This document shows, piece by piece, positions 30,514 to 63,044 of a stretch of 64,000 nt of DNA. The first letter of the stretch is position 1; each line of letters starts with the position of its first letter. Made by a program: the position numbers and the translations under genes. The notes below the pieces were generated by a model that saw only the letters and a list, made by a program, of their open reading frames with translations, searched no databases and was not told where the DNA came from. Source of the DNA: Promethearchaeota archaeon. GTDB lineage: Archaea > Asgardarchaeota > Lokiarchaeia > Sigyniarchaeales > SOKP01. The DNA is taken from assembly GCA_048937405.1 (NCBI GenBank), contig JBHLNF010000003.1, positions 160,001 to 224,000 on the forward strand, written 5' to 3'.

Positions 30514-33087
30514 CTATTTTTGTACTTGAATCACTTCTGTTGATTCCTGTTCAGTTTTGAGATCTAATAGCTTTAATATTTCAATACCAAAAATGTTTGA
30601 TAAGATTTTATTCATCTCAGGTCCTCCCATATAACCTTGACATCCTAAATGAAGCTTATGAAAGTGCTCACCTAATTTAGTTTCAACCTCTTTTATGAAA
30701 TTAATAATTTTTTCTTCTAATAATTGGGATGGTGTTTCGTTTAATAAAAATACAACTTTAAATTCTCCATCTGTAAAGAACCCTCCCGATAAATAACCAT
30801 CTCTAAATTTAATAGATAATATTTCACCAACGTTCAATGCTTCTGCAGCAATATGATCCAATGCAGTAAGAAAACCAGATAATATTGTATTATCCACATC
30901 TTCTTTTGTGAAACTTAGCTCATACATGTTTTGACCACTTTCTCGATGCTGTATTAATAATTTTTCTATCATCTCAATATCTGGATCTATAATAAATGGC
31001 TTGATTAAGAAATTAACAATATCTTCACGAGTATTTCGCAATATTTTAAAAAGTTTTTTAGGTTTATTTCCATGTTGAGGTCCAGTTGGTTCTTCCCAGC
31101 TAGGATCATTTATCAATTGTGTGGCTGATCGACCAGTATTTCTCATAATTCCAACTTGTGCTCCAAATACTATAGCAGCATGGAATTCAAAAGCAGCAAT
31201 ACTCCCACCATTAATACCTATAAGTTTAATTCTACTTGGATCGATCCCTGATTTCATTATATCATACCAATATTGAATTGCTTCCATTACGCTAAAATCT
31301 TTTCCTTTTGTTTGATGAATTGTAGTGTATCTTCTATCAATTAAAACATCAGGAGGTAGTTTTTTTGGAATGTAACCAATTGATTTGATTTTTTCATTAT
31401 ATTCTTCCTGAATTTCTCCTACCATAGCACATATTCCCGCTTTAGTTCCCCCCGAGATAATTGTACCTTCGAAATCACTAAATGCTTCAGTAACACTATT
31501 TTTAATGAATTGTAGACTTCTTTCGATATTAACATCAGTTCCTCCTGCTATTATTACAATAGAATCATCAGAATATTTTTGTTTTTGTTTTAATTTAGAA
31601 TCTAAATATTTTATAGAATCTGTTATTAGTTTATCCGTTTTTTCCTTAATATTTGGATGAAAAATTATTCCTAGATGTAGAATTTGTTTTACTATGTCAA
31701 TTCCTTCTATTTGTCTTTCTTGAGATAATTTTAGTGTATTCAATGTATTAATAGTAGTTTCGACCATCCAAATATCGGGACTACATCGTATAGCTTTTAA
31801 GTAGTAATCTAAGGCATCTTTTATATTCCCTAATAATAGATTAAAGAGCCCTAGATCAAAGTATGCCCATGGTATATCAACCATTACTCTTGCCTGTGTT
31901 AATCTCCTTTCTATCCCTTTCTGAATCATTTCTCTATGTTTATCAATCTGAGTTATATCACCTGTTTGTTGAATTAATAATACTAAATAATTCCCTAAGG
32001 GATAAGGATCACCAGGATCAACTTTTAAAGCTTCCATATATGATTCTAATGCTTTATCATATAACTTTTGCTGTTTATACATACCTCCTAAAGAAGCCCA
32101 GGCATCAGAATTGAAAGGATTAATTTGAATTGATTGTTTTAAATAAGAACGTCCTTGGATAAATTCTTGACTCTCTGGCACTTTTTTATACTTTTTATGA
32201 TAAGAAACTCCAATATCTCGTAGTATTTCCGCTATTTCTGGATCTGAAGCTTTTTTAACACTCTCACTTTCAATAATTTCATTTAATATCTCTATACTTT
32301 TATCCATATCGTTTATAAACATTGCTAATTTTGCGATTCTATAACCCACTTGATAATTACTCTTGTCTGCTTCATAAACTAACATTAATCTGTCAATTTC
32401 AGATTTTATTTTTTCGTTGGACATATAAGCGCCATACACAGATTCGTAATGCTGCATTTTGTCAACTAACTCATTTAAAGCATTATCCTCGATTGATAAA
32501 AGTGATCTTACTCGAGTTAATTCTTGTTCATACAGCTTTGGAACTTCAAATTCATATTGGTTAAAAATTTTGTATTGATTTGCTGCCCAACCATGGCTAA
32601 TATATGTACCAATTTGAACTTCTGACTTGAAATTAAAAAATTTATCTTGTATATCCAAATTTAATCTATCATAGAGCTTCAAATCAGGATCAAGCTGAAT
32701 AGTATATATTTGGTAATGCTCTGGATATTGATTTTCTTTGATTTTTTTAAAACCATCACTAGTGCTACCAATACTAGTTAGAAAAATATCTCTTATAGCT
32801 TGAATGACAACATCCATCTCATTAACATTTGGTAAAATTATTCGAACTCCACATAAATCATTTATCTCTGCAATAGGATCAGAGTATTTTACATCAGGAT
32901 TCAATAATTTATTGGCAAAACTAGAAATTGTCTTTACTCTGTTTTGAATAATATATTCTGAAGAACACCCTTGTACTATATTCTCAAGAATTGTTTCTAT
33001 AACTTTAGAATACTCTTCATAAAGAGGACGTAATTCTTTATATCTATTAATTTGTTCTTCAAAAAACTTGCGTTGTTCTACTTCCAT
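30514..33087 (-). CDS. Multidomain protein: RelA/SpoT-like nucleotidyltransferase + TPR + SLOG-like + C-terminal longin-like domain
   Basis: RVKTISSFANK / DLCGVRI / EVQIGT..HGWA; TPR DAWASLGGMYK; IAGGT, IISGGTKAG, GINGG..AAFE, TGRSA; C-terminal SGQNMYELSF...ILSGFLTAL...E...I..IKF. Confidence 0.7.
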   Translation of the reverse strand: MEVEQRKFFEEQINRYKELRPLYEEYSKVIETILENIVQGCSSEYIIQNRVKTISSFANKLLNPDVKYSDPIAEINDLCGVRIILPNVNEMDVVIQAIRDIFLTSIGSTSDGFKKIKENQYPEHYQIYTIQLDPDLKLYDRLNLDIQDKFFNFKSEVQIGTYISHGWAANQYKIFNQYEFEVPKLYEQELTRVRSLLSIEDNALNELVDKMQHYESVYGAYMSNEKIKSEIDRLMLVYEADKSNYQVGYRIAKLAMFINDMDKSIEILNEIIESESVKKASDPEIAEILRDIGVSYHKKYKKVPESQEFIQGRSYLKQSIQINPFNSDAWASLGGMYKQQKLYDKALESYMEALKVDPGDPYPLGNYLVLLIQQTGDITQIDKHREMIQKGIERRLTQARVMVDIPWAYFDLGLFNLLLGNIKDALDYYLKAIRCSPDIWMVETTINTLNTLKLSQERQIEGIDIVKQILHLGIIFHPNIKEKTDKLITDSIKYLDSKLKQKQKYSDDSIVIIAGGTDVNIERSLQFIKNSVTEAFSDFEGTIISGGTKAGICAMVGEIQEEYNEKIKSIGYIPKKLPPDVLIDRRYTTIHQTKGKDFSVMEAIQYWYDIMKSGIDPSRIKLIGINGGSIAAFEFHAAIVFGAQVGIMRNTGRSATQLINDPSWEEPTGPQHGNKPKKLFKILRNTREDIVNFLIKPFIIDPDIEMIEKLLIQHRESGQNMYELSFTKEDVDNTILSGFLTALDHIAAEALNVGEILSIKFRDGYLSGGFFTDGEFKVVFLLNETPSQLLEEKIINFIKEVETKLGEHFHKLHLGCQGYMGGPEMNKILSNIFGIEILKLLDLKTEQESTEVIQVQK

Positions 33088-33455
33088 AGTTCTTTTTTCA
33101 CTTAAACTTTTTATTAGTCATTATTTTTCATGAATTTCTTCTCTTAGTATTATTGATAAATCCTATTATTTAAAATTAACTTAAGATTGTTAATTAAAAT
33201 TATTATAATAAATGAAAAAATAATTCTCATAAATTCTTTTTTTATTTTTTAATATTAAAATTTAAAGATATTTGAACGAGAAGTAATATTTAAAATTATT
33301 ATAGTCATTTAATTTCATAATTTCAAAGCTAATTTCTTGTTTTAATTAATTTTTTAAGTAAACATCTGGAAAAGACTTATAATATATTACAGAAGCTTTT
33401 TTGTTTTCTATTTTTCTTGGTTAAATTGAAATTATAAAGAAGTGGTGATAAAAAA

Positions 33456-33623
33456 ATTCCAGAATTAATTTGCGATAGCTGTGGTTCTAGAAAAGACGTG
33501 CCTACCTGCTGTGATAAATCAATGATTGTAAAAGATGGATTTTTGCTTTGTTGCTGTTCTAAGGAGTGTGGATATCAACCAATTCCAGAATGTTGTGGAA
33601 AGAAAATGACTTATAAAAATTAA
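33456..33623 (+). CDS. Unannotated 55-aa Cys-rich protein with two desulforedoxin/zinc-ribbon-like repeats; probable ATT start
   Basis: IPELICDSCGSRKDVPTCCDKSMIVKDGFLLCCCSKECGYQPIPECCGKKMTYKN*; 10 Cys; GGTGAT SD at 33444-33449; GC-richer than its flanks. Confidence 0.75.
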   Translation: MPELICDSCGSRKDVPTCCDKSMIVKDGFLLCCCSKECGYQPIPECCGKKMTYKN

Positions 33624-33753: not shown

Positions 33754-35334
33754 TTACCATAAAAGATTGGCAATAATACTTTTAGCAAAATCCGCTTGTT
33801 TTTTATTCAATACCTTTTGAATTCTCAAATCATTAATTGAATCCTCAAGTCGTGTATCCAGATTTTTCATTTCCATAAGATTATTTTTATCCCCTTGAGA
33901 TTCAACTAATTCAATCATCGCATTGTCTTTATTCATCAAATCTCTTAATCTTTGTCTAAAGCTTATTTTAACCTTAGTACTTACAATTTTTCCTTTATCA
34001 ATCAGTACTGGTAGTACAGGAGCTCTTTCCGTGCTTCGATTTGTATTAGGATCAACGAAATAAAATATACATATTGGAATTCCTACTATAACATTATTAG
34101 TCTTTAACTCAAGAGTATAATTATTTAAAAAATTTTGAACATTAGTCATTTCAGTATCTACAATGGATACGATATTGTCTAGACAAGATTGTTTCTCATT
34201 TTTTATTCTCGCAATCACATCTTCGGTAGAACTTAAATCACTGGAAAGTTCACTATGTTTTGTTTCTATTTCTTTTTCTACTTCAGATTTTTTGCGTTCC
34301 AATTCTCTTATTCTTTGTTGTTTTGATTTTTCTAGATCGCTAAGTTCTTTTTGTACATTTCTCTTTAACTGATTAATTTCAGTTTGATATCGAGAGATTG
34401 AATTTCCAAGATCTTGATATTTTAAATTTATATCTTTTAAAGCTTCTTCTACCAAAAATAAATCTCGTTGATTAATCGCATTTTTCATACTATCAACACT
34501 CTGCTTAAGTCTACTGATATCATTGTTTAGTTCTCCAGTTTTGTCATTTATTTTGTATTTACCAATTTTTACTAGTTCATCTGGAGATCCCTCAATTTCA
34601 CGTTGCATTTCTTTCTGTATTTCTTTATTAAGTATTGTAAGTTGCTTTTCTTCATCACTAGTATCTACCTTTGTATCTTTTATTTTATCAACTTGCTTAC
34701 CTCCCCTTTCAATCCATTTATCACATAACTTTATAATGGCATCTTCATAAGTCTCAAGCATACTAGCATCTTTTTGAGTCACAAAATCTAAAATTTCTGG
34801 TGCTATTTTTGTTTGATTCACACTTTTGGCTATAGCAGCACCTTCCAGCAGAAAATATGGCGTTGTATGAGCCCCTAAATCATATTGGTTTAAGAAAAAG
34901 TTTTGAAAATAACCAACCTCATTAGCATTAAATAGTGCCTCTTGAATTACAGTCCCACGTTTAAAATTCTTTGTTCTTTTTAAATACGTATTGTTATAAG
35001 ATTGTAATGAATTTAAGAAAGATGTGGGATCTGCTCCTTTTATCACATTTTCTGGTCTTGGTGGCATTTGAGCAAATTTCCCAACACTAAGTTTTTCTTG
35101 TTTATTCATAAGATAACTACAAACACAAGCTCTCGTATCACTTAGAGGAATTAACCGAACTGGCCAAAAAGCCGTTGAAATTTTTGCTAATTTCCCTAAT
35201 TTTTGAAGTTTCTTACCATATATCCCAATTAATTCAATCATACCCATTGCTAATTCATTTAATAAAGCAGCTTGGCTTCTTGCGGGAATTATTTCACCCA
35301 TATTAATTAAATAAGGAATTACTTTATTAACCAT
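33754..35334 (-). CDS. Hypothetical protein with a long central coiled coil
   Basis: Heptad-rich E/K/Q/L segment (about aa 200-400) flanked by globular N- and C-terminal regions (FWPVRLIP; VGIPICIFYF). Confidence 0.7.
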   Translation of the reverse strand: MVNKVIPYLINMGEIIPARSQAALLNELAMGMIELIGIYGKKLQKLGKLAKISTAFWPVRLIPLSDTRACVCSYLMNKQEKLSVGKFAQMPPRPENVIKGADPTSFLNSLQSYNNTYLKRTKNFKRGTVIQEALFNANEVGYFQNFFLNQYDLGAHTTPYFLLEGAAIAKSVNQTKIAPEILDFVTQKDASMLETYEDAIIKLCDKWIERGGKQVDKIKDTKVDTSDEEKQLTILNKEIQKEMQREIEGSPDELVKIGKYKINDKTGELNNDISRLKQSVDSMKNAINQRDLFLVEEALKDINLKYQDLGNSISRYQTEINQLKRNVQKELSDLEKSKQQRIRELERKKSEVEKEIETKHSELSSDLSSTEDVIARIKNEKQSCLDNIVSIVDTEMTNVQNFLNNYTLELKTNNVIVGIPICIFYFVDPNTNRSTERAPVLPVLIDKGKIVSTKVKISFRQRLRDLMNKDNAMIELVESQGDKNNLMEMKNLDTRLEDSINDLRIQKVLNKKQADFAKSIIANLLW

Positions 35335-35641: not shown

Positions 35642-38600
35642 TTATCTAATAATTTCCTCATGTAGTTTTTCGATAAATCCATCAAAATCTTCTTTAGTGA
35701 ATTTCACATTCAACAGTGGTGTAAGTAAGAAAGGAATTAATTCTTCAGTCTCATATACTGGAACTATTTTCATCAATCCTTTTTTCCTCATCTGAAATGC
35801 TGCTTGCCATTCATCTTCTACTGCTCTAGATTTGACTGAATGTTGAGAGCAAAAAAATACAAAGACTTTTGTCATTTTTAAAGTTCTTTCCATATAAGAC
35901 ACAATGTTTTCTCCACTGTCTTCTTCCCAAAAGAAAACTTTATCGACTTTTGGATATGTTTCTAATCGTTTCGCGATTTCTTTAATATTAAAATGTTTTG
36001 AATCAAGTGTTGAATAACTTAAAAACACATTTAATTCTTGAGTAAAGTAGCTTCTAATATTGTTGATAAATAATGGATAAGAAGACAATTGTTCAGAGGT
36101 TATAATACCTTGATTAATTCCTTTTTTGAAAATACTAAGGTTCATTAAATTAGTTTCAACCATGTCCTTATTTGGGAAAATCGTGGAGAATATTTGGTTC
36201 CAATTTTCATTATTAGTAATTATTGAACTACTATCGGATAAATCTATTGCATCCATAGGTTCTATTTGTGCTTTTAACTTGCTTGGCTTTATAGTTTGCA
36301 TTTTAATATCTAATGTTGATCTTATATATTCCGGAATTCCAACACCCCACCATTCAGATTCATAGTTGCTTTGCAATTTTAATTTAATAAAACTTTTTAG
36401 GTTAGATTCGAAATTTTCAATATCCTTTATAGCTATTTCTAATTGTTTTTTATGAGTAGATCTTTTGTTAATTTTTGGTTTGAGAATTAAATATATACTA
36501 ATGATACTAATAAGAGCTACAACTCCAACAATAATCAATATTATTTCAAATGCCGTTAATCCATCACCTCCATCTCCAGATGATTCCCCACTTATTTCTA
36601 GTATAAAATAGTCATAATTATCTCCCTCACCATTTTCTTTTAATTCTCCATATCTGGAACCGTAAGTTTCATTAATTAAATTATTAGGATCTATAATTAA
36701 TTCGATTACTACATCTCCCCCTGTTGAATCAATACTACTACTTGTGAATATATGGGAAAATGTCTTATTCACTCCTAAATATTCTATTGGGGTATCTGAA
36801 TTATTATATAAAATATCCCCCGTATATTCAACCCTAATTATAATTTCAATATTATTTGCTTCCCAAATACCATTATTAATGATTGTAAAATTTAATACAA
36901 ATGACTTACCTATTTCTGCAGTGCTCGCATGAAAATTTACAACTGCTAAATTGGGCATTGGATACCAGAAGCGAATCAATGGTTCAGTCCCTAATTTTAC
37001 TTCAATTCCATCAAGAAAAGTGTCTCCATCACTATCGTTGTTTTTAGGATCTGTTTGATGTTTAAATTCATCTATATTTAAAAGTTGATCATTGTCCGAA
37101 TCTGTTAAATTATCATTACCATTGAGTGGTTCCAAACCATTGAGAACTTCCCATAGATCTTCCATATTATCAAAATCGGTGTCTTTATTCCATGGATTGG
37201 TTAAATTAAGCGCTTCCCAATAATCATTTAACCCATCACCATCAGAATCTGGATTGGTAACATTAGTTCGATATGTATCACTACCTGGTATATATTCTTC
37301 ATAATTATATAACCTGTCTCCGTCAGTATCCTCATAGGTTGGATAAATTAGAGGATTTGAATCAAAAACCCGAGTAGTTCCATCAATTAAAAATGGAATA
37401 TCTCCAATTCCATCCTCTGGATTTAGATCTTCCCCCTTATACTCATCCCAATAATTACCTGCATAACCATCATCCCAAGTATTATTAACGCCACTGTCTT
37501 CAGCATCCACCTCATTATTGATAAAATTATTATAACAAATTTTATTATCTTCTAGATATAAAGATTCTTCTATAAGAATACCAAATTCTTTATTATCGGT
37601 AATCCTATTATTTTGAATAGTATTATTCTTATTAGCATTTTTTTCTTCAAAATATATTCCAAATCTCTCATTGCCTTTTATTGTATTATTACTAATTATA
37701 TTATTGTCGGAATAATTTAAAATATAAAGTCCATATCCTCCACCTAATTCAAGAAACGATAAAGGTTTATTTGTAATTTTATTAAAATTAAATGAATTGT
37801 TAAAGAAGATATTATTAGAACTATCTTGCAAATATAATCCAGCATCATTGTTGTTAAGCTCGTTAAATGAAAAATGACTATTATTAGTTGATACTAAAAC
37901 CAAACCTAATTGATTATTATTTATAATACAGTTTGAAAAATTACACTCTTTAGATAAAAACGATACTATTCCAAAAAAATAATTATCTGTTAAATTAATC
38001 CTTTCAAAGAGAGTATTACTACAATTAAAAAGAAATAATCCTAATGATACATTAAAGAGATCTAAGTCTGATATATAGGAATTTTCTGAATTAACTAAAT
38101 AAACTTGACTTGCGTTTGTAAAATCAGAAGGACCTAAATTCGATTCATTATAATAATAATAAAATCTTTTATCATTTACCGTATTTGTATCATCTATATC
38201 AAACGTATCTTCCTGGATGGCATTAGATACTAAGGTAATTCCACCCCCTTTAAATTCATTACCACTAAGCTTTGTATGATCAACAACACCTTCCTCAGGA
38301 AAAACTAAAATAGAACTTCCTATATTATTGATACCTGAATTATTTGTTATAATAGTAGTGTCAACATTATTTGATAATAATAAACCAATAAGATTATTCT
38401 TAAAGAAACATTGTGAAATAGTACTATTATCGCTTTCACAAACGATTATACCACTTCTACAATTACTAAAATTATTTTTTAAAATAGAGTTATTATGACA
38501 ATAAAAATTTAGGAGTAATCCTTCCTCACTATTAAAAGAAGCACTATTGTTAGTAATTATATTATTAGAACAATTATATAATGTAATTCCGACTGTAGCA

Positions 38601-40558
38601 TGAGTAATATTTGTATTTGATATAATTGAATTATTACAATTTATTAAAATTATTTGTCCGGCATTTTTTATTAGATTAGTATCTTTTACTTGTTCATTCC
38701 AGCGGTAGATCAGTGGTTTTGCATTTACTTCATTATCAGTAATATTATATGAAATATTATTAAAAGAAAGAGAGGGTAAATAATCCTCTTCCTTAAAATT
38801 TATGTATAATCCACAATAAGTTAGTTGATTTTCCAAAATTGTAACATTAAAAACATTAAATAAATAAATACCACTTTTTCCATTATACTTCCCCTTATTC
38901 TTGGTAAGGTTATTATAATTACTCCATTCCAGAAAAATTCCATTACCATAGTCAGCCGAAGATTCCAAATCTTGATGAGCAGTATTATTATTCATTGTAT
39001 TATTTAAGATTAAATTATATTCACTACCACCACTCAAACGTATACCATTAGAATTGAATGTGGCAATATTTTCAGAAATATTATTATTATTGCTCTCAAC
39101 AAGATGTAATCCCTCTAAAGTATTATTAATTAATGTATTTTCTAAAATAGTATTATTCTCACAATTTTCCAATAAAATACCTGTCATAGCATGGTCATAC
39201 GAGCGTAAATCTTTATTGTTACATTTCACTCTATTTTTTGTAATATTATTGTTGAAACATTCTCTAAGATGAATTCCAACTTCATTATATGAGACATTAT
39301 TCTCTATAATTTTACTGAAAGTAGTTGATCTTATTTTAATCCCAAAGAAATTACTATTATTAATTTCATTAGAATCGATTGTTATATTATAACAATAAGT
39401 TAAATCAATCCCATATTCTCTATTATTATTTAACGTATTGTTTCTAATTGTGATATTTTCACAAAAATGTAAGCTAACTCCTATCGAAGAAGAAGAAATG
39501 TTAAAATCAGAGATTAATGAATCATTACATCCTGCTAATATAATTTGTCCTGGAGGTTCTGGAGGTCCAGTTTGTGTAAAATCTTGGTTATTAAGATTGC
39601 TTTCGTTAAAATAATAATACACAGATTTCCCATTTACTGTATTACTTGTATCAATATTATAATCAAAATAAAAAAGAGAATTACCATTGAAACTTAGACC
39701 ACAATCTACCATTTGATTAGCTGCTAAGGTATTATTTGTAGATTCAAAAAAATACATTCCTCTCGTATTGTTCACAAGACGATTCTGACTAATATTGTTA
39801 TGATTACAATTTGCTTGAAATGAGATTCCTAAATTCCCATTATAAGAAAGATTATTTTCTTTTATAATATTCATTGTACAGAAATCTTTAGCCCAAATCC
39901 CTGATTGACCATTATTTTCAATAGTATTATTAAATATAATATTATTTTCACATAAAGTTTCTAATTCAAATCCACGGTGAAAATTATGATGAATTTGATT
40001 ATCTGAAAAATTGTTATAAGAACTACTACCATTTATCCTTATTCCAACTTCATTACCGAATATTTTATTTTTTTGAATTATATTGTTTTCACTTTTATTT
40101 AGCCATATACCATATTTTTGATTACTAAAAAATGTACTATTAATTATTTTACCATTAGTAACATTATTAAACATCAATCCAAAATACATTTCGCTGGATC
40201 CAAATAAGGTACAATTATTAATCACAAAATAATCCTCTGAATTTTCTATAAGGATGCAAAAACCTGAAGCTCCGGCATTAATTGTAACATTTTCAATTAA
40301 ATGAGGATCTGCTAAATCTCCGGTTCTATTCTGGATCCAATCAAGATCCGCGTCAGACCAATTATCATTTGCGATATGAATTGGAGGGCAATTTGGCCAA
40401 AAATCTGCTGTTTTTAACTTAGAATCATTATTAGTGGATTCAAAATTCTTTTCTGCTGTAAAATAGTTCCAAAAATCCCCCCTAAGAAATGAATAACTGG
40501 AGAATATAAATACAAGTATTAATAAAACTTCAATTTTTTTTTTTTTTTCTTGAATCAT
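35642..40558 (-). CDS. Membrane receptor-like protein: signal anchor, NosD/CASH beta-helix ectodomain, Ca-binding DxDxDG repeats, CARDB/Ig-like, TM helix, Swt1/HEPN-like domain, C-terminal TIR
   Basis: GIxL..s.nN.I..N repeats; DTDGDRL, DSDGDGLNDYWE, DSDGDTFLDGIE; PNLAVV...IINNG...IIDPNNLINE; TM FEIILIIVGVVALISIISIYLIL then KPK; IENFESNLKSFI...EWWGVGIP...ENWNQIF; TIR NVFLSYS...FFWEED...FVFFCS..SVKSRAVEDEWQAA...IVPV. Confidence 0.8.
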   Translation of the reverse strand: MIQEKKKKIEVLLILVFIFSSYSFLRGDFWNYFTAEKNFESTNNDSKLKTADFWPNCPPIHIANDNWSDADLDWIQNRTGDLADPHLIENVTINAGASGFCILIENSEDYFVINNCTLFGSSEMYFGLMFNNVTNGKIINSTFFSNQKYGIWLNKSENNIIQKNKIFGNEVGIRINGSSSYNNFSDNQIHHNFHRGFELETLCENNIIFNNTIENNGQSGIWAKDFCTMNIIKENNLSYNGNLGISFQANCNHNNISQNRLVNNTRGMYFFESTNNTLAANQMVDCGLSFNGNSLFYFDYNIDTSNTVNGKSVYYYFNESNLNNQDFTQTGPPEPPGQIILAGCNDSLISDFNISSSSIGVSLHFCENITIRNNTLNNNREYGIDLTYCYNITIDSNEINNSNFFGIKIRSTTFSKIIENNVSYNEVGIHLRECFNNNITKNRVKCNNKDLRSYDHAMTGILLENCENNTILENTLINNTLEGLHLVESNNNNISENIATFNSNGIRLSGGSEYNLILNNTMNNNTAHQDLESSADYGNGIFLEWSNYNNLTKNKGKYNGKSGIYLFNVFNVTILENQLTYCGLYINFKEEDYLPSLSFNNISYNITDNEVNAKPLIYRWNEQVKDTNLIKNAGQIILINCNNSIISNTNITHATVGITLYNCSNNIITNNSASFNSEEGLLLNFYCHNNSILKNNFSNCRSGIIVCESDNSTISQCFFKNNLIGLLLSNNVDTTIITNNSGINNIGSSILVFPEEGVVDHTKLSGNEFKGGGITLVSNAIQEDTFDIDDTNTVNDKRFYYYYNESNLGPSDFTNASQVYLVNSENSYISDLDLFNVSLGLFLFNCSNTLFERINLTDNYFFGIVSFLSKECNFSNCIINNNQLGLVLVSTNNSHFSFNELNNNDAGLYLQDSSNNIFFNNSFNFNKITNKPLSFLELGGGYGLYILNYSDNNIISNNTIKGNERFGIYFEEKNANKNNTIQNNRITDNKEFGILIEESLYLEDNKICYNNFINNEVDAEDSGVNNTWDDGYAGNYWDEYKGEDLNPEDGIGDIPFLIDGTTRVFDSNPLIYPTYEDTDGDRLYNYEEYIPGSDTYRTNVTNPDSDGDGLNDYWEALNLTNPWNKDTDFDNMEDLWEVLNGLEPLNGNDNLTDSDNDQLLNIDEFKHQTDPKNNDSDGDTFLDGIEVKLGTEPLIRFWYPMPNLAVVNFHASTAEIGKSFVLNFTIINNGIWEANNIEIIIRVEYTGDILYNNSDTPIEYLGVNKTFSHIFTSSSIDSTGGDVVIELIIDPNNLINETYGSRYGELKENGEGDNYDYFILEISGESSGDGGDGLTAFEIILIIVGVVALISIISIYLILKPKINKRSTHKKQLEIAIKDIENFESNLKSFIKLKLQSNYESEWWGVGIPEYIRSTLDIKMQTIKPSKLKAQIEPMDAIDLSDSSSIITNNENWNQIFSTIFPNKDMVETNLMNLSIFKKGINQGIITSEQLSSYPLFINNIRSYFTQELNVFLSYSTLDSKHFNIKEIAKRLETYPKVDKVFFWEEDSGENIVSYMERTLKMTKVFVFFCSQHSVKSRAVEDEWQAAFQMRKKGLMKIVPVYETEELIPFLLTPLLNVKFTKEDFDGFIEKLHEEIIR

Positions 40559-61101: not shown

Positions 61102-61632
61102 ATGTCTCAACTAATATACACTTTTAAAACAATAATAATTGGTCCAGCAGCAGTAGGAAAATCTAGTCTTATACGTAGATTTGTAGAAAATAAATTTTCT
61201 TTACATTATAAATTCACGATTGGGGTTGATTTTTTAACAAAAGAGGTTGAATTCGAAACAGGAAAGATTTCTAAACTTACATTGTGGGATATAGGTGGAC
61301 AAGACCGTTTTAAGGTATTGCGTAAAAGTTTTTATGAAGGAACCAATGGAGCGATTGCTGTATTTGATCTTTCAAGAGCTCAAACTTTTTCAAAAATGAA
61401 AGAATGGGTCTCAGATGCTCGTCAAACTATTGAAACTAATTTTCCGGTTGTTATAATTGGTAATAAATCTGATTTAATTCCGGATATTGGGTTAGTTATT
61501 GATCGAAATGAGGTTAAACAATTCGCTGAGAAAGAAAAAACTATATATATTGAAACTTCTGCTAAAACAGGAGATAATGTTGAAGAAGCTTTTCTTGAAC
61601 TTACAAAACGAATGATAAAAGAATGTTCCTAG
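61102..61632 (+). CDS. Rab-like small GTPase (Ras superfamily)
   Basis: G1 GPAAVGKS, G2 TIGVDF, G3 WDIGGQ, G4 NKSD, G5 ETSAK. Confidence 0.92.
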   Translation: MSQLIYTFKTIIIGPAAVGKSSLIRRFVENKFSLHYKFTIGVDFLTKEVEFETGKISKLTLWDIGGQDRFKVLRKSFYEGTNGAIAVFDLSRAQTFSKMKEWVSDARQTIETNFPVVIIGNKSDLIPDIGLVIDRNEVKQFAEKEKTIYIETSAKTGDNVEEAFLELTKRMIKECS

Positions 61633-61845
61633 TTCTTAAGTAAGATAAAATTTACTATTACCTTAGTTTAACCATATATTTTTTATTTTTTTTAATATCC
61701 ATAAATCTACTAATTTTGTTCTCTAAGCTATTTTATTTAATTTTTTGCAGATTTGGGATAGATTTCAATTTGAATATCTAATAACATGAATATAAATTGA
61801 TGAATTCTTATTCTTAGTCTATATAGAAAATTATATTGTTTTCTA

Positions 61846-62370
61846 ATGACGGAATATACCTTTAAGATACTAGTTATTGGACCTGCTGCAGTAGGAAAAT
61901 CTAGTTTAATACGACGATTTGTTGATAATGAGTTTTCATTACAATATAAATTCACTATTGGTGTGGATTTTATGACAAAGAATATTATTAATAGACAAAA
62001 TCAAAGTATTAGACTAACTATTTGGGATATAGGGGGCCAAGATCGATTCAAAGTATTACTCCGGAGTTTTTACGATGGTGCTCATGGGGCAATTGTAGTT
62101 TTTGATCTCTCAAGACCTTATACATATTTAAAGATGAAAGATTGGATTTCTGATATGTACAAAATAATGCAAAAAAGAATTCCTATTGTGATACTAGGAA
62201 ATAAACTTGATCTGATAAGTGAAATTGGTGAAACAATAGATCGAAATGAACTTTTTCAATATACTGAAAAAGAACGTTATTTTTATTTAGAAACATCTGC
62301 TAAAACAGGTGAAAATGTAGAAAATGCTTTTACAGAAATTACTCAAAGAATTTTAGATAAAAATTATTAA
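61846..62370 (+). CDS. Rab-like small GTPase (Ras superfamily)
   Basis: GPAAVGKS, TIGVDF, WDIGGQ, NKLD, ETSAK. Confidence 0.92.
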   Translation: MTEYTFKILVIGPAAVGKSSLIRRFVDNEFSLQYKFTIGVDFMTKNIINRQNQSIRLTIWDIGGQDRFKVLLRSFYDGAHGAIVVFDLSRPYTYLKMKDWISDMYKIMQKRIPIVILGNKLDLISEIGETIDRNELFQYTEKERYFYLETSAKTGENVENAFTEITQRILDKNY

Positions 62371-62507
62371 TTTTTAATCTTAAAAAGTTCGTTTTATAAT
62401 GATTAAAATGAATTAAAGGCATTTTTTTTTTCTATTTAAATTCAATGGTTTAGAAAATTTTAAAATATCAAACTAAGATAATTTAATAAAAGTAGCTTTG
62501 ATACAAA

Positions 62508-63044
62508 ATGACGCTTTATGTATTTAAAGTTTTAATAATAGGGCCAGGAGCAGTAGGGAAAACTTCACTTTTACACAGATTTGTGGAAAATAAGTTCTCT
62601 TTTCGGTATAAATTAACGATTGGAGCGGATTTTTTAGCTAAAGTTATTCAAGATCATCCAAAACCAGGATCAACAATAAAAATGCAAATTTGGGATATTG
62701 GAGGTCAAGAACGATATAAATTCCTAAGATCCAGCTTTTTTGATGGTGCCAATGGAGCCCTAATAGTATTCGATTTATCTCGATGGCATACATTTGAAGA
62801 AATTGATGAATGGTTATCAGATTTATATGAATATGCAGGTAAAGATGTTCCTTTTGCGTTAATTGGAAATAAGGCAGATCTAATTAACTCAAAAGACGAA
62901 CTTTATGAACGAGAAAGCGCACAAGTATTTGCTAAGAAAGAAAAAACATTTTATGTTGAAACTTCTGCAAAAACAGGCGAAAAAGTAGAGGATGCTTTCT
63001 TGAATTTGGCAGAATTAATGATTAAAAAGATTAATCCTGATTAA
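62508..63044 (+). CDS. Rab-like small GTPase (Ras superfamily)
   Basis: GPGAVGKT, TIGADF, WDIGGQ, NKAD, ETSAK. Confidence 0.92.
   Translation: MTLYVFKVLIIGPGAVGKTSLLHRFVENKFSFRYKLTIGADFLAKVIQDHPKPGSTIKMQIWDIGGQERYKFLRSSFFDGANGALIVFDLSRWHTFEEIDEWLSDLYEYAGKDVPFALIGNKADLINSKDELYERESAQVFAKKEKTFYVETSAKTGEKVEDAFLNLAELMIKKINPD

Follow-up and report, generated by a model that had tools for sequence, protein, structure and literature searches.

What might a single archaeal protein do that joins a RelA/SpoT-like nucleotidyltransferase (NTase) to TPRs, a SLOG domain and a longin-like tail? The question is raised by the gene P0001, found in a 64,000-nucleotide stretch of DNA from a Promethearchaeota archaeon (the window, by which we mean the whole stretch that was analysed). 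An earlier note on this DNA had read the product as a sensor linking a nucleotide messenger to GTPase or trafficking machinery. The decisive evidence proved to be the gene neighbourhood, which that note did not use. Because the gene is linked to TIR genes, and in a wider family to NUDIX and DUF4062-STAND genes, we place it in a Thoeris-like conflict or immune system: with somewhat better than even confidence, P0001 is the signal-receiving part of a TIR-based, Thoeris-like nucleotide signalling system, most likely one that serves immunity or conflict. The gene encodes four domains:

30514..33087 (-): RelA/SpoT-TPR-SLOG-longin-like gene (P0001), an open reading frame (ORF) of 857 aa, from the ORF list and its translation
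32443..33087 (-): RelA/SpoT-like NTase domain, residues ~1-215; Pfam PF04607 covers residues 50-169, nucleotides (nt) 32581-32940
31588..32400 (-): TPR region, residues ~230-500; Pfam TPR_1/2/8/17 above cut-off, and consensus TPR structures match
31105..31554 (-): LSDAT-type SLOG domain, residues 512-661; Pfam PF18171 and Foldseek matches to TRPM MHR1/2
30553..30990 (-): C-terminal domain of predicted longin/roadblock fold, residues ~700-845; AlphaFold2 (AF2) model and fold searches

Gene neighbourhoods and distribution

TIR genes were sought with the Pfam model TIR_2 in 22 genomes that carry the gene, and positions were compared. A TIR_2 gene lies within 3 kb in 13 of the 14 loci with upstream DNA. 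It is the next gene upstream, on the same strand, in G074, G100, G047, G075, G043, G015, G089, G064, G097, G060 and G068; in G099 it stands in the same way beside a gene fragment, and the gap left by such upstream same-strand genes is 145-760 bp. Tandem TIR genes occur in G064 (three) and G097 (two), and the TIR gene of G033 is convergent, about 450 bp off. At the fourteenth locus, G041, a DUF4062-STAND-TPR gene adjoins and six TIR genes are clustered 5-17 kb away. Loci with no TIR match (G056, G067, G083, G091 and G086) have the contig edge just upstream, or a contig extent that was unchecked. Since each genome holds only 1-13 TIR genes in 3-5 Mb (13 in the window genome), a TIR gene would fall within 3 kb by chance in about 0.2-2% of cases per locus, a figure for single loci, related loci not being independent. 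The linkage survives changes of partner architecture and of flanking genes.

The G041 locus also has a split layout (L031; G041:C38:1-20000), in which a RelA/SpoT-TPR-SLOG gene (669 aa) precedes a 700-aa paralogue with TPR-SLOG, the longin-like tail and no NTase domain. Upstream is the DUF4062-STAND-TPR gene, and two genes joining TIR to leucine-rich repeats (LRRs) are nearby.

In the window, the TIR gene is 2.6 kb upstream of P0001, with one gene between. The neighbouring features are:

35642..40558 (-): TIR partner, 1638 aa, with signal/anchor helix, beta-helix ectodomain, transmembrane (TM) helix and C-terminal TIR (nt 35663-36028)
33754..35334 (-): 526-aa protein, a variable neighbour with weak DUF4407/Tho2 Pfam matches only
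33438..33623 (+): Cys-rich mini-ORF of ~55-60 codons with 10 Cys, on the opposite strand between P0001 and the upstream genes

The TIR partner is matched by Pfam NosD/Beta_helix and by TIR_2 (E 6e-15). About 1000 residues of NosD-type beta-helix repeats, following an N-terminal hydrophobic helix, form the ectodomain, and the TM helix spans residues 1330-1348; in this predicted layout the protein resembles a Toll-like receptor in shape. Its TIR is 59-66% identical to TIRs of genes directly upstream of orthologues of P0001. Partner scaffolds vary from locus to locus: signal peptide, beta-helix ectodomain and TM helix (window, L026, L027, L028); four N-terminal TM helices and ~550 residues (L021-23, L033, L027); a short form of 254 aa (L030); and cytosolic MalT-like TPR arrays (in a clade of 669-aa relatives) or LRR arrays (L031). 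A Glu at the catalytic position is retained in 36 of the 37 partner TIRs, and that of the window aligns with the WCxDEL Glu of a plant TIR (3jrn) and of Cat1 in pairwise alignments that are weak.

The 526-aa protein has orthologues (66-72% identity) beside the system in two other loci, L030 and L027, in differing positions; a search of the ESM Atlas with it returned archaeal hypothetical proteins only. The mini-ORF recurs at the same place in six clade-A loci, with the Cys pattern CxxCG-x7-CC...CCC-x3-C-x7-CCG. Five of the six have an ATG-started 'MIKIPEL...' frame, and the window copy has no ATG, GTG or TTG start. Possibly the mini-ORF adds a further component to the system.

Two other kinds of neighbour were seen at loci of homologues. 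Beside the homologue P0040 (L005:2340-7054), an operon that begins with the gene of a 555-aa TIR protein also holds ThiF (E1-like), Prok-JAB and UFC1-like (E2-like) genes; sets of this kind for ubiquitin-like conjugation are known from CBASS-type systems. At the loci of P0029 and P0034, a metallo-beta-lactamase (MBL)-fold protein with a weak match to Apyc1-like cyclic-nucleotide phosphodiesterases is encoded two genes upstream (L001:8284-8946, L004:6108-6770).

A search for the architecture gave about 45 protein clusters with the full layout of ~850 aa, 36-85% identical, all named ones being from Promethearchaeota/Lokiarchaeia. Of the 102 genomes examined from the same family, 25 have the gene; within the genus 14 of 36 do, and in other families of the class it was found in 0 of 18. 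It is missing from several congeners that are 97-99% complete, and in several genomes the copy is split or has decayed (internal stops, an internal deletion, fragments); its behaviour is therefore that of an accessory rather than a core gene. The fragment P0039, 501 aa long, has a precomputed GTP_EFTU match. As the window genome has a single RelA/SpoT gene and a single LSDAT gene, we see no part for P0001 in a general stringent response or alarmone metabolism.

A second clade in the same archaeal family has proteins of 669 aa, about 35% identical, without the tail. Beyond it, the core (residues ~4-666) was recognised at 23-35% identity in 40 further loci, in a scan of one genome per species. 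Their titles name Proteobacteria, Chloroflexota, Planctomycetota, Acidobacteriota, Bacteroidetes, Gemmatimonadota and Actinomycetota, and among archaea Bathyarchaeia, Thermoplasmatota and Heimdallarchaeota: the RelA/SpoT-TPR-SLOG core is sporadic over bacteria and archaea. In this wider family the C-terminal part is usually a RyR domain, and the longin-like tail was seen in Promethearchaeota loci only.

The neighbours of the wider family were counted with profiles for TIR, NUDIX, DUF4062 and RyR built ad hoc from few Pfam-verified seeds, with E-values inflated after iteration, so the counts are lower bounds. The gene just upstream encodes a NUDIX hydrolase of 130-170 aa in 8 of the 10 loci tested with Pfam, and a NUDIX neighbour or fusion was found in 22 of the 40 loci, often 20-50 bp upstream. 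A TIR or DUF4062(-NACHT/STAND-TPR/WD40) neighbour is present in 19 of the 40, and a SLATT protein at one locus. DUF4062 we take to be TIR-like, from its Pfam clan. No NUDIX or other hydrolase gene lies beside P0001 in the window, the five NUDIX genes of this genome being on other contigs. Among the wider loci (L047-L086) there recurs a trio of a small NUDIX hydrolase, a RelA/SpoT-TPR-LSDAT SLOG-RyR protein and a DUF4062- or TIR-headed STAND/TPR/WD40 protein; in L067, L071 and L086, NUDIX is apparently fused to the effector.

Enzyme site, SLOG domain and tail

The N-terminal domain is matched by PF04607 (RelA_SpoT) over residues 50-169 (E 1e-10, 42-43.6 bits against a cut-off of 27) and, by sequence in the PDB, by the small alarmone synthetase (SAS) RelP/YwaC (6fgk, E 3e-5). 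For the TPR region, the model TPR-S (PF20308) gives 21.8 bits (E 2.9e-4), under its cut-off of 27.6, and some homologues have precomputed PF20308 matches. LSDAT_prok (PF18171) scores 24 bits on the whole protein and 30.1 bits on the SLOG domain alone (residues 500-700), the cut-off being 25.4. Two fragments, residues 500-857 and 700-857, were modelled by AF2 with homologue alignments. The larger model has a mean confidence (pLDDT) of 85.5, and its top 48 Foldseek matches in the PDB are the MHR1/2 regions of TRPM2/3/4/7/8 (E ~1e-6, ~200 columns), ADPR (ADP-ribose)-bound states of TRPM2 included; the SLOG assignment thus holds by fold as well as by profile. Across 18-20 homologues, G515/G516, G547-G551, G627/G628, E634 and G652 show little or no variation. 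By profile and by fold, the domain is of the TRPM/ADPR-binding type, and ligand binding is predicted. The TPRs and Rossmannoid SLOG-type region described in the earlier note are borne out by these matches and by the Pfam TPRs, and its longin-like tail by AF2, Foldseek and VIA-align (below). Since structure searching recovers both the SLOG and the longin fold, that part of its reading stands. On the whole of P0001, Pfam, NCBIfam and PADLOC assigned the tail to no family and matched no verified defence family; the sole PADLOC match is the candidate PDC-S33, on the NTase domain.

The catalytic motifs named in the earlier note are all present, RxKxxxSxxxK as RVKTISSFANK (residues 50-60), DxxGxR as DLCGVR (77-82) and EVQIGT at 156-161. 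A clear GYxSxH is indeed lacking, EHYQIYT being at that place. The absence of H..YK holds for the His, the canonical HxxxYK being replaced by NQYK, but the YK itself is retained. P0001 therefore keeps the ATP/Mg-site residues R50, K52, S56, K60, D77, G80 and R82, plus E156, Q158 and T161, and departs from the canonical site at R160 (Gly), in the G-loop (EHYQIYT) and at HxxxYK (ANQYK).

To see these departures in context, 94 non-redundant N-terminal domains were aligned and grouped by tail (18 RyR-tailed, 29 tail-less or other, 47 longin-tailed); kinship between sequences inflates the counts. In the RyR-tailed and the tail-less or other groups, R50, K52, K60, D77, G80, R82, E156, Q158 and T161 vary little or not at all, and R160 is near-invariant too. 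The G-loop Tyr is present in 18/18 RyR-tailed, 21/29 tail-less or other and 7/47 longin-tailed sequences, and the His of HxxxYK in 18/18, 20/29 and 11/47, respectively, with Tyr in its place in 29 of the longin-tailed ones. Within the longin-tailed group R160 is found in 34/47 and E156 in 44/47. The Gly160 of P0001 is inherited rather than a sequencing error, since its closest relatives P0002, P0003 and L034 carry it too; P0004, at 82% identity, has Arg. The suspicion, voiced before, that catalysis is altered or lost gains support for the longin-tailed clade from the motif losses across these 47 sequences. Judged from the alignment, constraint on the enzyme became relaxed or redirected together with acquisition of the tail. 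Because the acceptor site is remodelled in the Promethearchaeota clade, the catalytic output of P0001 may be changed or weakened.

The AF2 model of the tail (residues 700-857, pLDDT 86.8) has the topology b-b-a-b-b-b-a-a. Foldseek matches it to MglB, LAMTOR, Asgard Roadblock, AP2 sigma/AP sigma subunits and the TRAPP subunits Bet5 and Trs23 (E 2e-4). With VIA-align, Z is 11.7 to Trs23/synbindin (124 aa, root-mean-square deviation (rmsd) 2.7) and about 11 to the roadblock proteins MglB, LAMTOR and Asgard Roadblock (~105 aa). The scores do not separate longin from roadblock, and longin-type matches also span the C-terminal helices. Pfam, at E up to 10, gave no longin or roadblock family for residues 690-857, only a chance-level P2 match. 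A two-copy model of the tail has an interface score (ipSAE) of 0.52 (0.51-0.56 in three runs) versus 0.00 for the best control; the runs agree in at least 90% of contacts, with a partner pLDDT of at least 78. In calibration, the mark was reached by 20 of 30 proteins whose solved structure is a pair of the same chain and by 1 of 23 whose solved structure is a single chain, which makes it a rough guide here, where the tail's own alignment was used. The interface, formed by helix a1 and edge strand b3 (fragment residues 32-66), is the classic one of roadblock dimers, and resemblance to solved structures of that kind may account for the pass. The tail is probably best read, from these models, as a module for dimerisation or docking.

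At E <=0.001, a profile of the tail matches 630 representative proteins out of a library of 1.84 billion. All members whose source is named are from Asgard archaea (Loki-, Hel- and Harpocratesius-type) and are annotated as hypothetical; Pfam on ten tail-carrying proteins found Ig-like domains only. The domain often closes a large secreted or Ig-rich protein and has a TM helix ~30-50 residues ahead of it, a receptor-like layout. The window genome has 16 matches (contigs C20, C18, C7, C17, C26, C27 and others); P0072-P0198 are family members. A 515-aa protein of this genome (L089:603-2150 (-), G000:C7) joins a Gtr1/RagA-like G domain (Pfam E 4e-14) to a tail-like domain at residues 331-411 (HMMER E 3.5e-6, hhalign probability 75%), the location of the roadblock domain in Rag GTPases. 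In a 289-aa protein (L090:613-1482 (-), G000:C13), an Arf/Roc-like G domain follows an N-terminus that is weakly tail-like (E 9e-4, probability 28%).

These fusions bear on the strongest of the alternatives, a non-immune transducer in which a messenger sensed by SLOG would be coupled through the tail to small-GTPase or trafficking machinery, the NTase being largely a regulatory relic. The fold is one used by GTPase regulators, the tail family is expanded in Asgard archaea and joined to Gtr1/RagA-like and, weakly, Arf/Roc-like G domains, and constraint on the NTase is relaxed precisely in the clade that gained the tail. However, the conserved neighbourhood has no GTPase gene, the nearest Ras-like match being 28 kb away among 91 in the genome; most of the family lacks the tail and has RyR or nothing instead; and the tail may merely homodimerise. 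TIR, STAND, NUDIX and SLATT neighbours are typical of conflict systems, and a gene of a core cellular pathway would hardly be so patchy or so often a pseudogene. We consider such a transducer unlikely. Of the earlier proposal of a nucleotide-messenger sensor linked to GTPases or trafficking, the messenger part is upheld by the SLOG domain and the TIR linkage, and the GTPase part is not, for want of a conserved GTPase neighbour. A GTPase link is plausible for the tail family and putative for P0001, where it is a minority reading. The nearest Ras-family genes are three small GTPase genes in tandem (176, 174 and 178 aa) at 61102-63044 (+) of the window.

A proposed Thoeris-like chain and its alternatives

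TIR domains with the catalytic Glu make ADP-ribose-derived messengers. Single-domain RelA/SpoT synthetases are toxic effectors, making (pp)pApp or pyrophosphorylating tRNA. SLOG domains receive TIR messengers in type I Thoeris, and occur also in type III and candidate Thoeris effectors. The LSDAT SLOG of TRPM2 binds ADPR. Given these known roles, a chain from sensor-TIR through messenger and SLOG to NTase is the simplest model, and from it we infer a direction of signalling, a ligand, an enzymatic product and an immune role. A TIR partner with its own sensor part would detect a cue; in the window this would be the receptor-shaped beta-helix-TM-TIR protein, and elsewhere a 4TM-TIR, TPR-TIR, LRR-TIR or DUF4062-STAND-repeat protein. 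The TIR domain would then convert NAD+ to an ADP-ribose-derived messenger, to be bound by the LSDAT-type SLOG, possibly with the TPR region. Binding would activate the N-terminal NTase, which may move pyrophosphate from ATP to a nucleotide or a tRNA end and arrest the cell, as toxic small alarmone synthetases do. In bacteria the NUDIX protein could clear stray messenger or the product of the enzyme. In the Promethearchaeota clade an ancestral RyR tail would have been swapped for the longin/roadblock tail, dimerising the protein or docking it to like domains.

Several observations weigh against this chain. In the window the TIR gene is not adjacent to P0001, the 526-aa gene and the antisense mini-ORF intervening, and the gap of 666 bp upstream of P0001 suggests a separate promoter. 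The P0029 and P0034 loci have 8-10 kb of flank and no TIR gene, and about half of the wider loci have no match to TIR or DUF4062 with the ad hoc profiles. Known Thoeris systems have a cytosolic ThsB, from which the membrane-receptor TIR partners differ, and PADLOC gives the candidate PDC-S33 and no verified defence family. In the enzyme site, R160 is Gly, Cys, His or Ser in 13 of the 47 longin-tailed sequences, and the Mg-binding E156 is Lys in P0030, P0031, P0034 and P0036. P0030, P0031 and P0034 have lost the RxK and GxR motifs too, with SLOG and tail still 45-55% identical. With the site eroded in some members and the rest conserved, an output that is enzymatic only cannot apply to every member, and perhaps does not apply to P0001.

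A further-reaching variant concerns Lokiarchaeia: the ectodomain-TM-TIR receptor would signal via an NAD-derived messenger to the cytosolic SLOG protein, whose newly gained tail would dock on the Asgard roadblock/longin-GTPase network, the output having shifted from arrest to GTPase-controlled biology. This we regard as quite unlikely.

The polarity of the system might also be reversed, SLOG and TPRs sensing the cue, the RelA/SpoT-like domain making an alarmone-like messenger, and the TIR proteins acting as effectors that deplete NAD+. TIR is the NADase effector in CBASS, Pycsar and pAgo systems, the NTase has strongly conserved catalytic residues in most family members, and the NUDIX neighbour could degrade the NTase product. 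We give this arrangement little credence: the TIR partners bear large, variable sensor parts (ectodomains, TPR, LRR, WD40, STAND) expected of an upstream detector and lack any known domain that senses nucleotides, reception of TIR products is an established role of SLOG domains, and catalytically eroded NTase copies are still TIR-linked.

In a toxin-antitoxin-like arrangement the NTase would be a toxic SAS that TPR-SLOG restrains in cis; a NUDIX antitoxin would also restrain it in the wider family, and TIR would be merely a co-resident of the defence island. There are precedents for toxic SAS enzymes paired with hydrolase antitoxins, NUDIX heads the list of neighbours in the wider family (22/40), and PDC-S33 matches the NTase domain. 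Yet the Asgard clade, with no NUDIX nearby, retains its TIR partner, and island co-residence is an unlikely source of a TIR adjacency that outlasts changes of partner and flanks; the probability of this arrangement is in our judgement low.

A housekeeping (p)ppGpp synthetase for an archaeal stringent-like response, suggested by the RelA/SpoT match above the Pfam cut-off and by the JGI label 'ppGpp synthetase' on homologues, is very improbable and was rejected, the gene being missing from most close relatives, 99%-complete genomes included, and decaying to pseudogenes, the genome having no hydrolase partner or other RelA/SpoT homologue (RSH) gene, the guanine-stacking G-loop Tyr being lost, and the linkage being to immune-type genes.

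LSDAT was reportedly defined by Burroughs et al. in 2015 (NAR), and the bacterial neighbourhood may have had a prior computational mention in that LSDAT-defining paper. The earlier note knew of no description of the four-part architecture, and we likewise found none in the searchable literature (SLOG with RelA/SpoT, LSDAT, TPR-S, type III Thoeris). RelA, ppGpp, PF04607 and LSDAT are absent from the available portions of the text and supplements of the 2025 systematic Thoeris survey. A 2026 paper on the Asgard defensome predicted no complete Thoeris in the putative host genomes of one Asgard virus.

If the Thoeris-like reading is true, a RelA/SpoT-type nucleotidyltransferase gated by a TRPM-type SLOG would be a new class of effector in TIR-based immunity, sporadic over many bacterial and archaeal phyla and with NUDIX and NLR-like partners. 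Asgard archaea, in which standard tools detect no complete Thoeris systems, would then have TIR-to-SLOG signalling after all, with TIR partners shaped like transmembrane receptors. The swap of the tail, seen in Asgard archaea only, together with erosion of the enzyme site, offers a testable case of the rewiring of an immune effector, which may head toward the GTPase-regulatory modules central to ideas on eukaryogenesis. Were docking to GTPases also true, there would be a prokaryotic link between TIR signalling and GTPase platforms of the eukaryotic type.

Comparison with known systems

Among Thoeris systems (type I with the SIR2-SLOG protein ThsA, type III with ThsD, and candidates with SLOG-patatin or SLOG-4TM), the likeness is in a gene for a TIR with catalytic Glu near a gene for a SLOG protein. 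The sporadic, accessory distribution is also shared, and several tandem TIR genes at some loci recall type III. Unlike in Thoeris, the SLOG domain of P0001 is of the LSDAT/TRPM rather than the ThsA type, a TPR region and a RyR or longin-like tail are added, and the TIR partners are large and receptor-like, some of them transmembrane. The RelA/SpoT NTase output is not among the effectors in the accessible parts of the 2025 survey.

With the toxic small alarmone synthetases (toxSAS: FaRel, FaRel2, PhRel2, CapRel and Tas1), P0001 and its relatives share a lone RelA/SpoT synthetase domain without a hydrolase domain, a conflict context and catalytic motifs conserved family-wide; the bacterial NUDIX neighbour could act as antitoxin or hydrolase. 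In contrast to toxSAS, the synthetase is fused to TPR-SLOG sensor parts, and the neighbour is NUDIX, not a small alarmone hydrolase (SAH) or a Panacea-type antitoxin. The longin-tailed clade differs further in that other residues stand in for the G-loop Tyr and the His of HxxxYK and, in P0001, R160 is Gly.

The MHR1/2 regions of TRPM channels are the best structural match of the SLOG domain and belong to the same Pfam lineage, LSDAT. P0001, however, has no channel part, and in prokaryotes the SLOG is joined to TPRs and an enzyme. TRPM2 carries the NUDIX domain NUDT9-H, and the wider prokaryotic family also pairs an LSDAT SLOG with a NUDIX protein; this pair parallels ADPR-gated TRPM2 and may be relevant to how that module arose.

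The tail belongs to an unannotated family expanded in Asgard archaea, outside the Pfam longin and roadblock families, unlike the domains that it resembles (Trs23/Bet5, AP sigma, the longin domains of Sec22/VAMP7, MglB, LAMTOR, the C-terminal domain of Rag and Asgard Roadblock). It is predicted to share with them the fold b-b-a-b-b-b-a(-a), with Z of 10-11.7, and with the roadblock dimers in particular a symmetric arrangement of two tails through helix a1 and edge strand b3.

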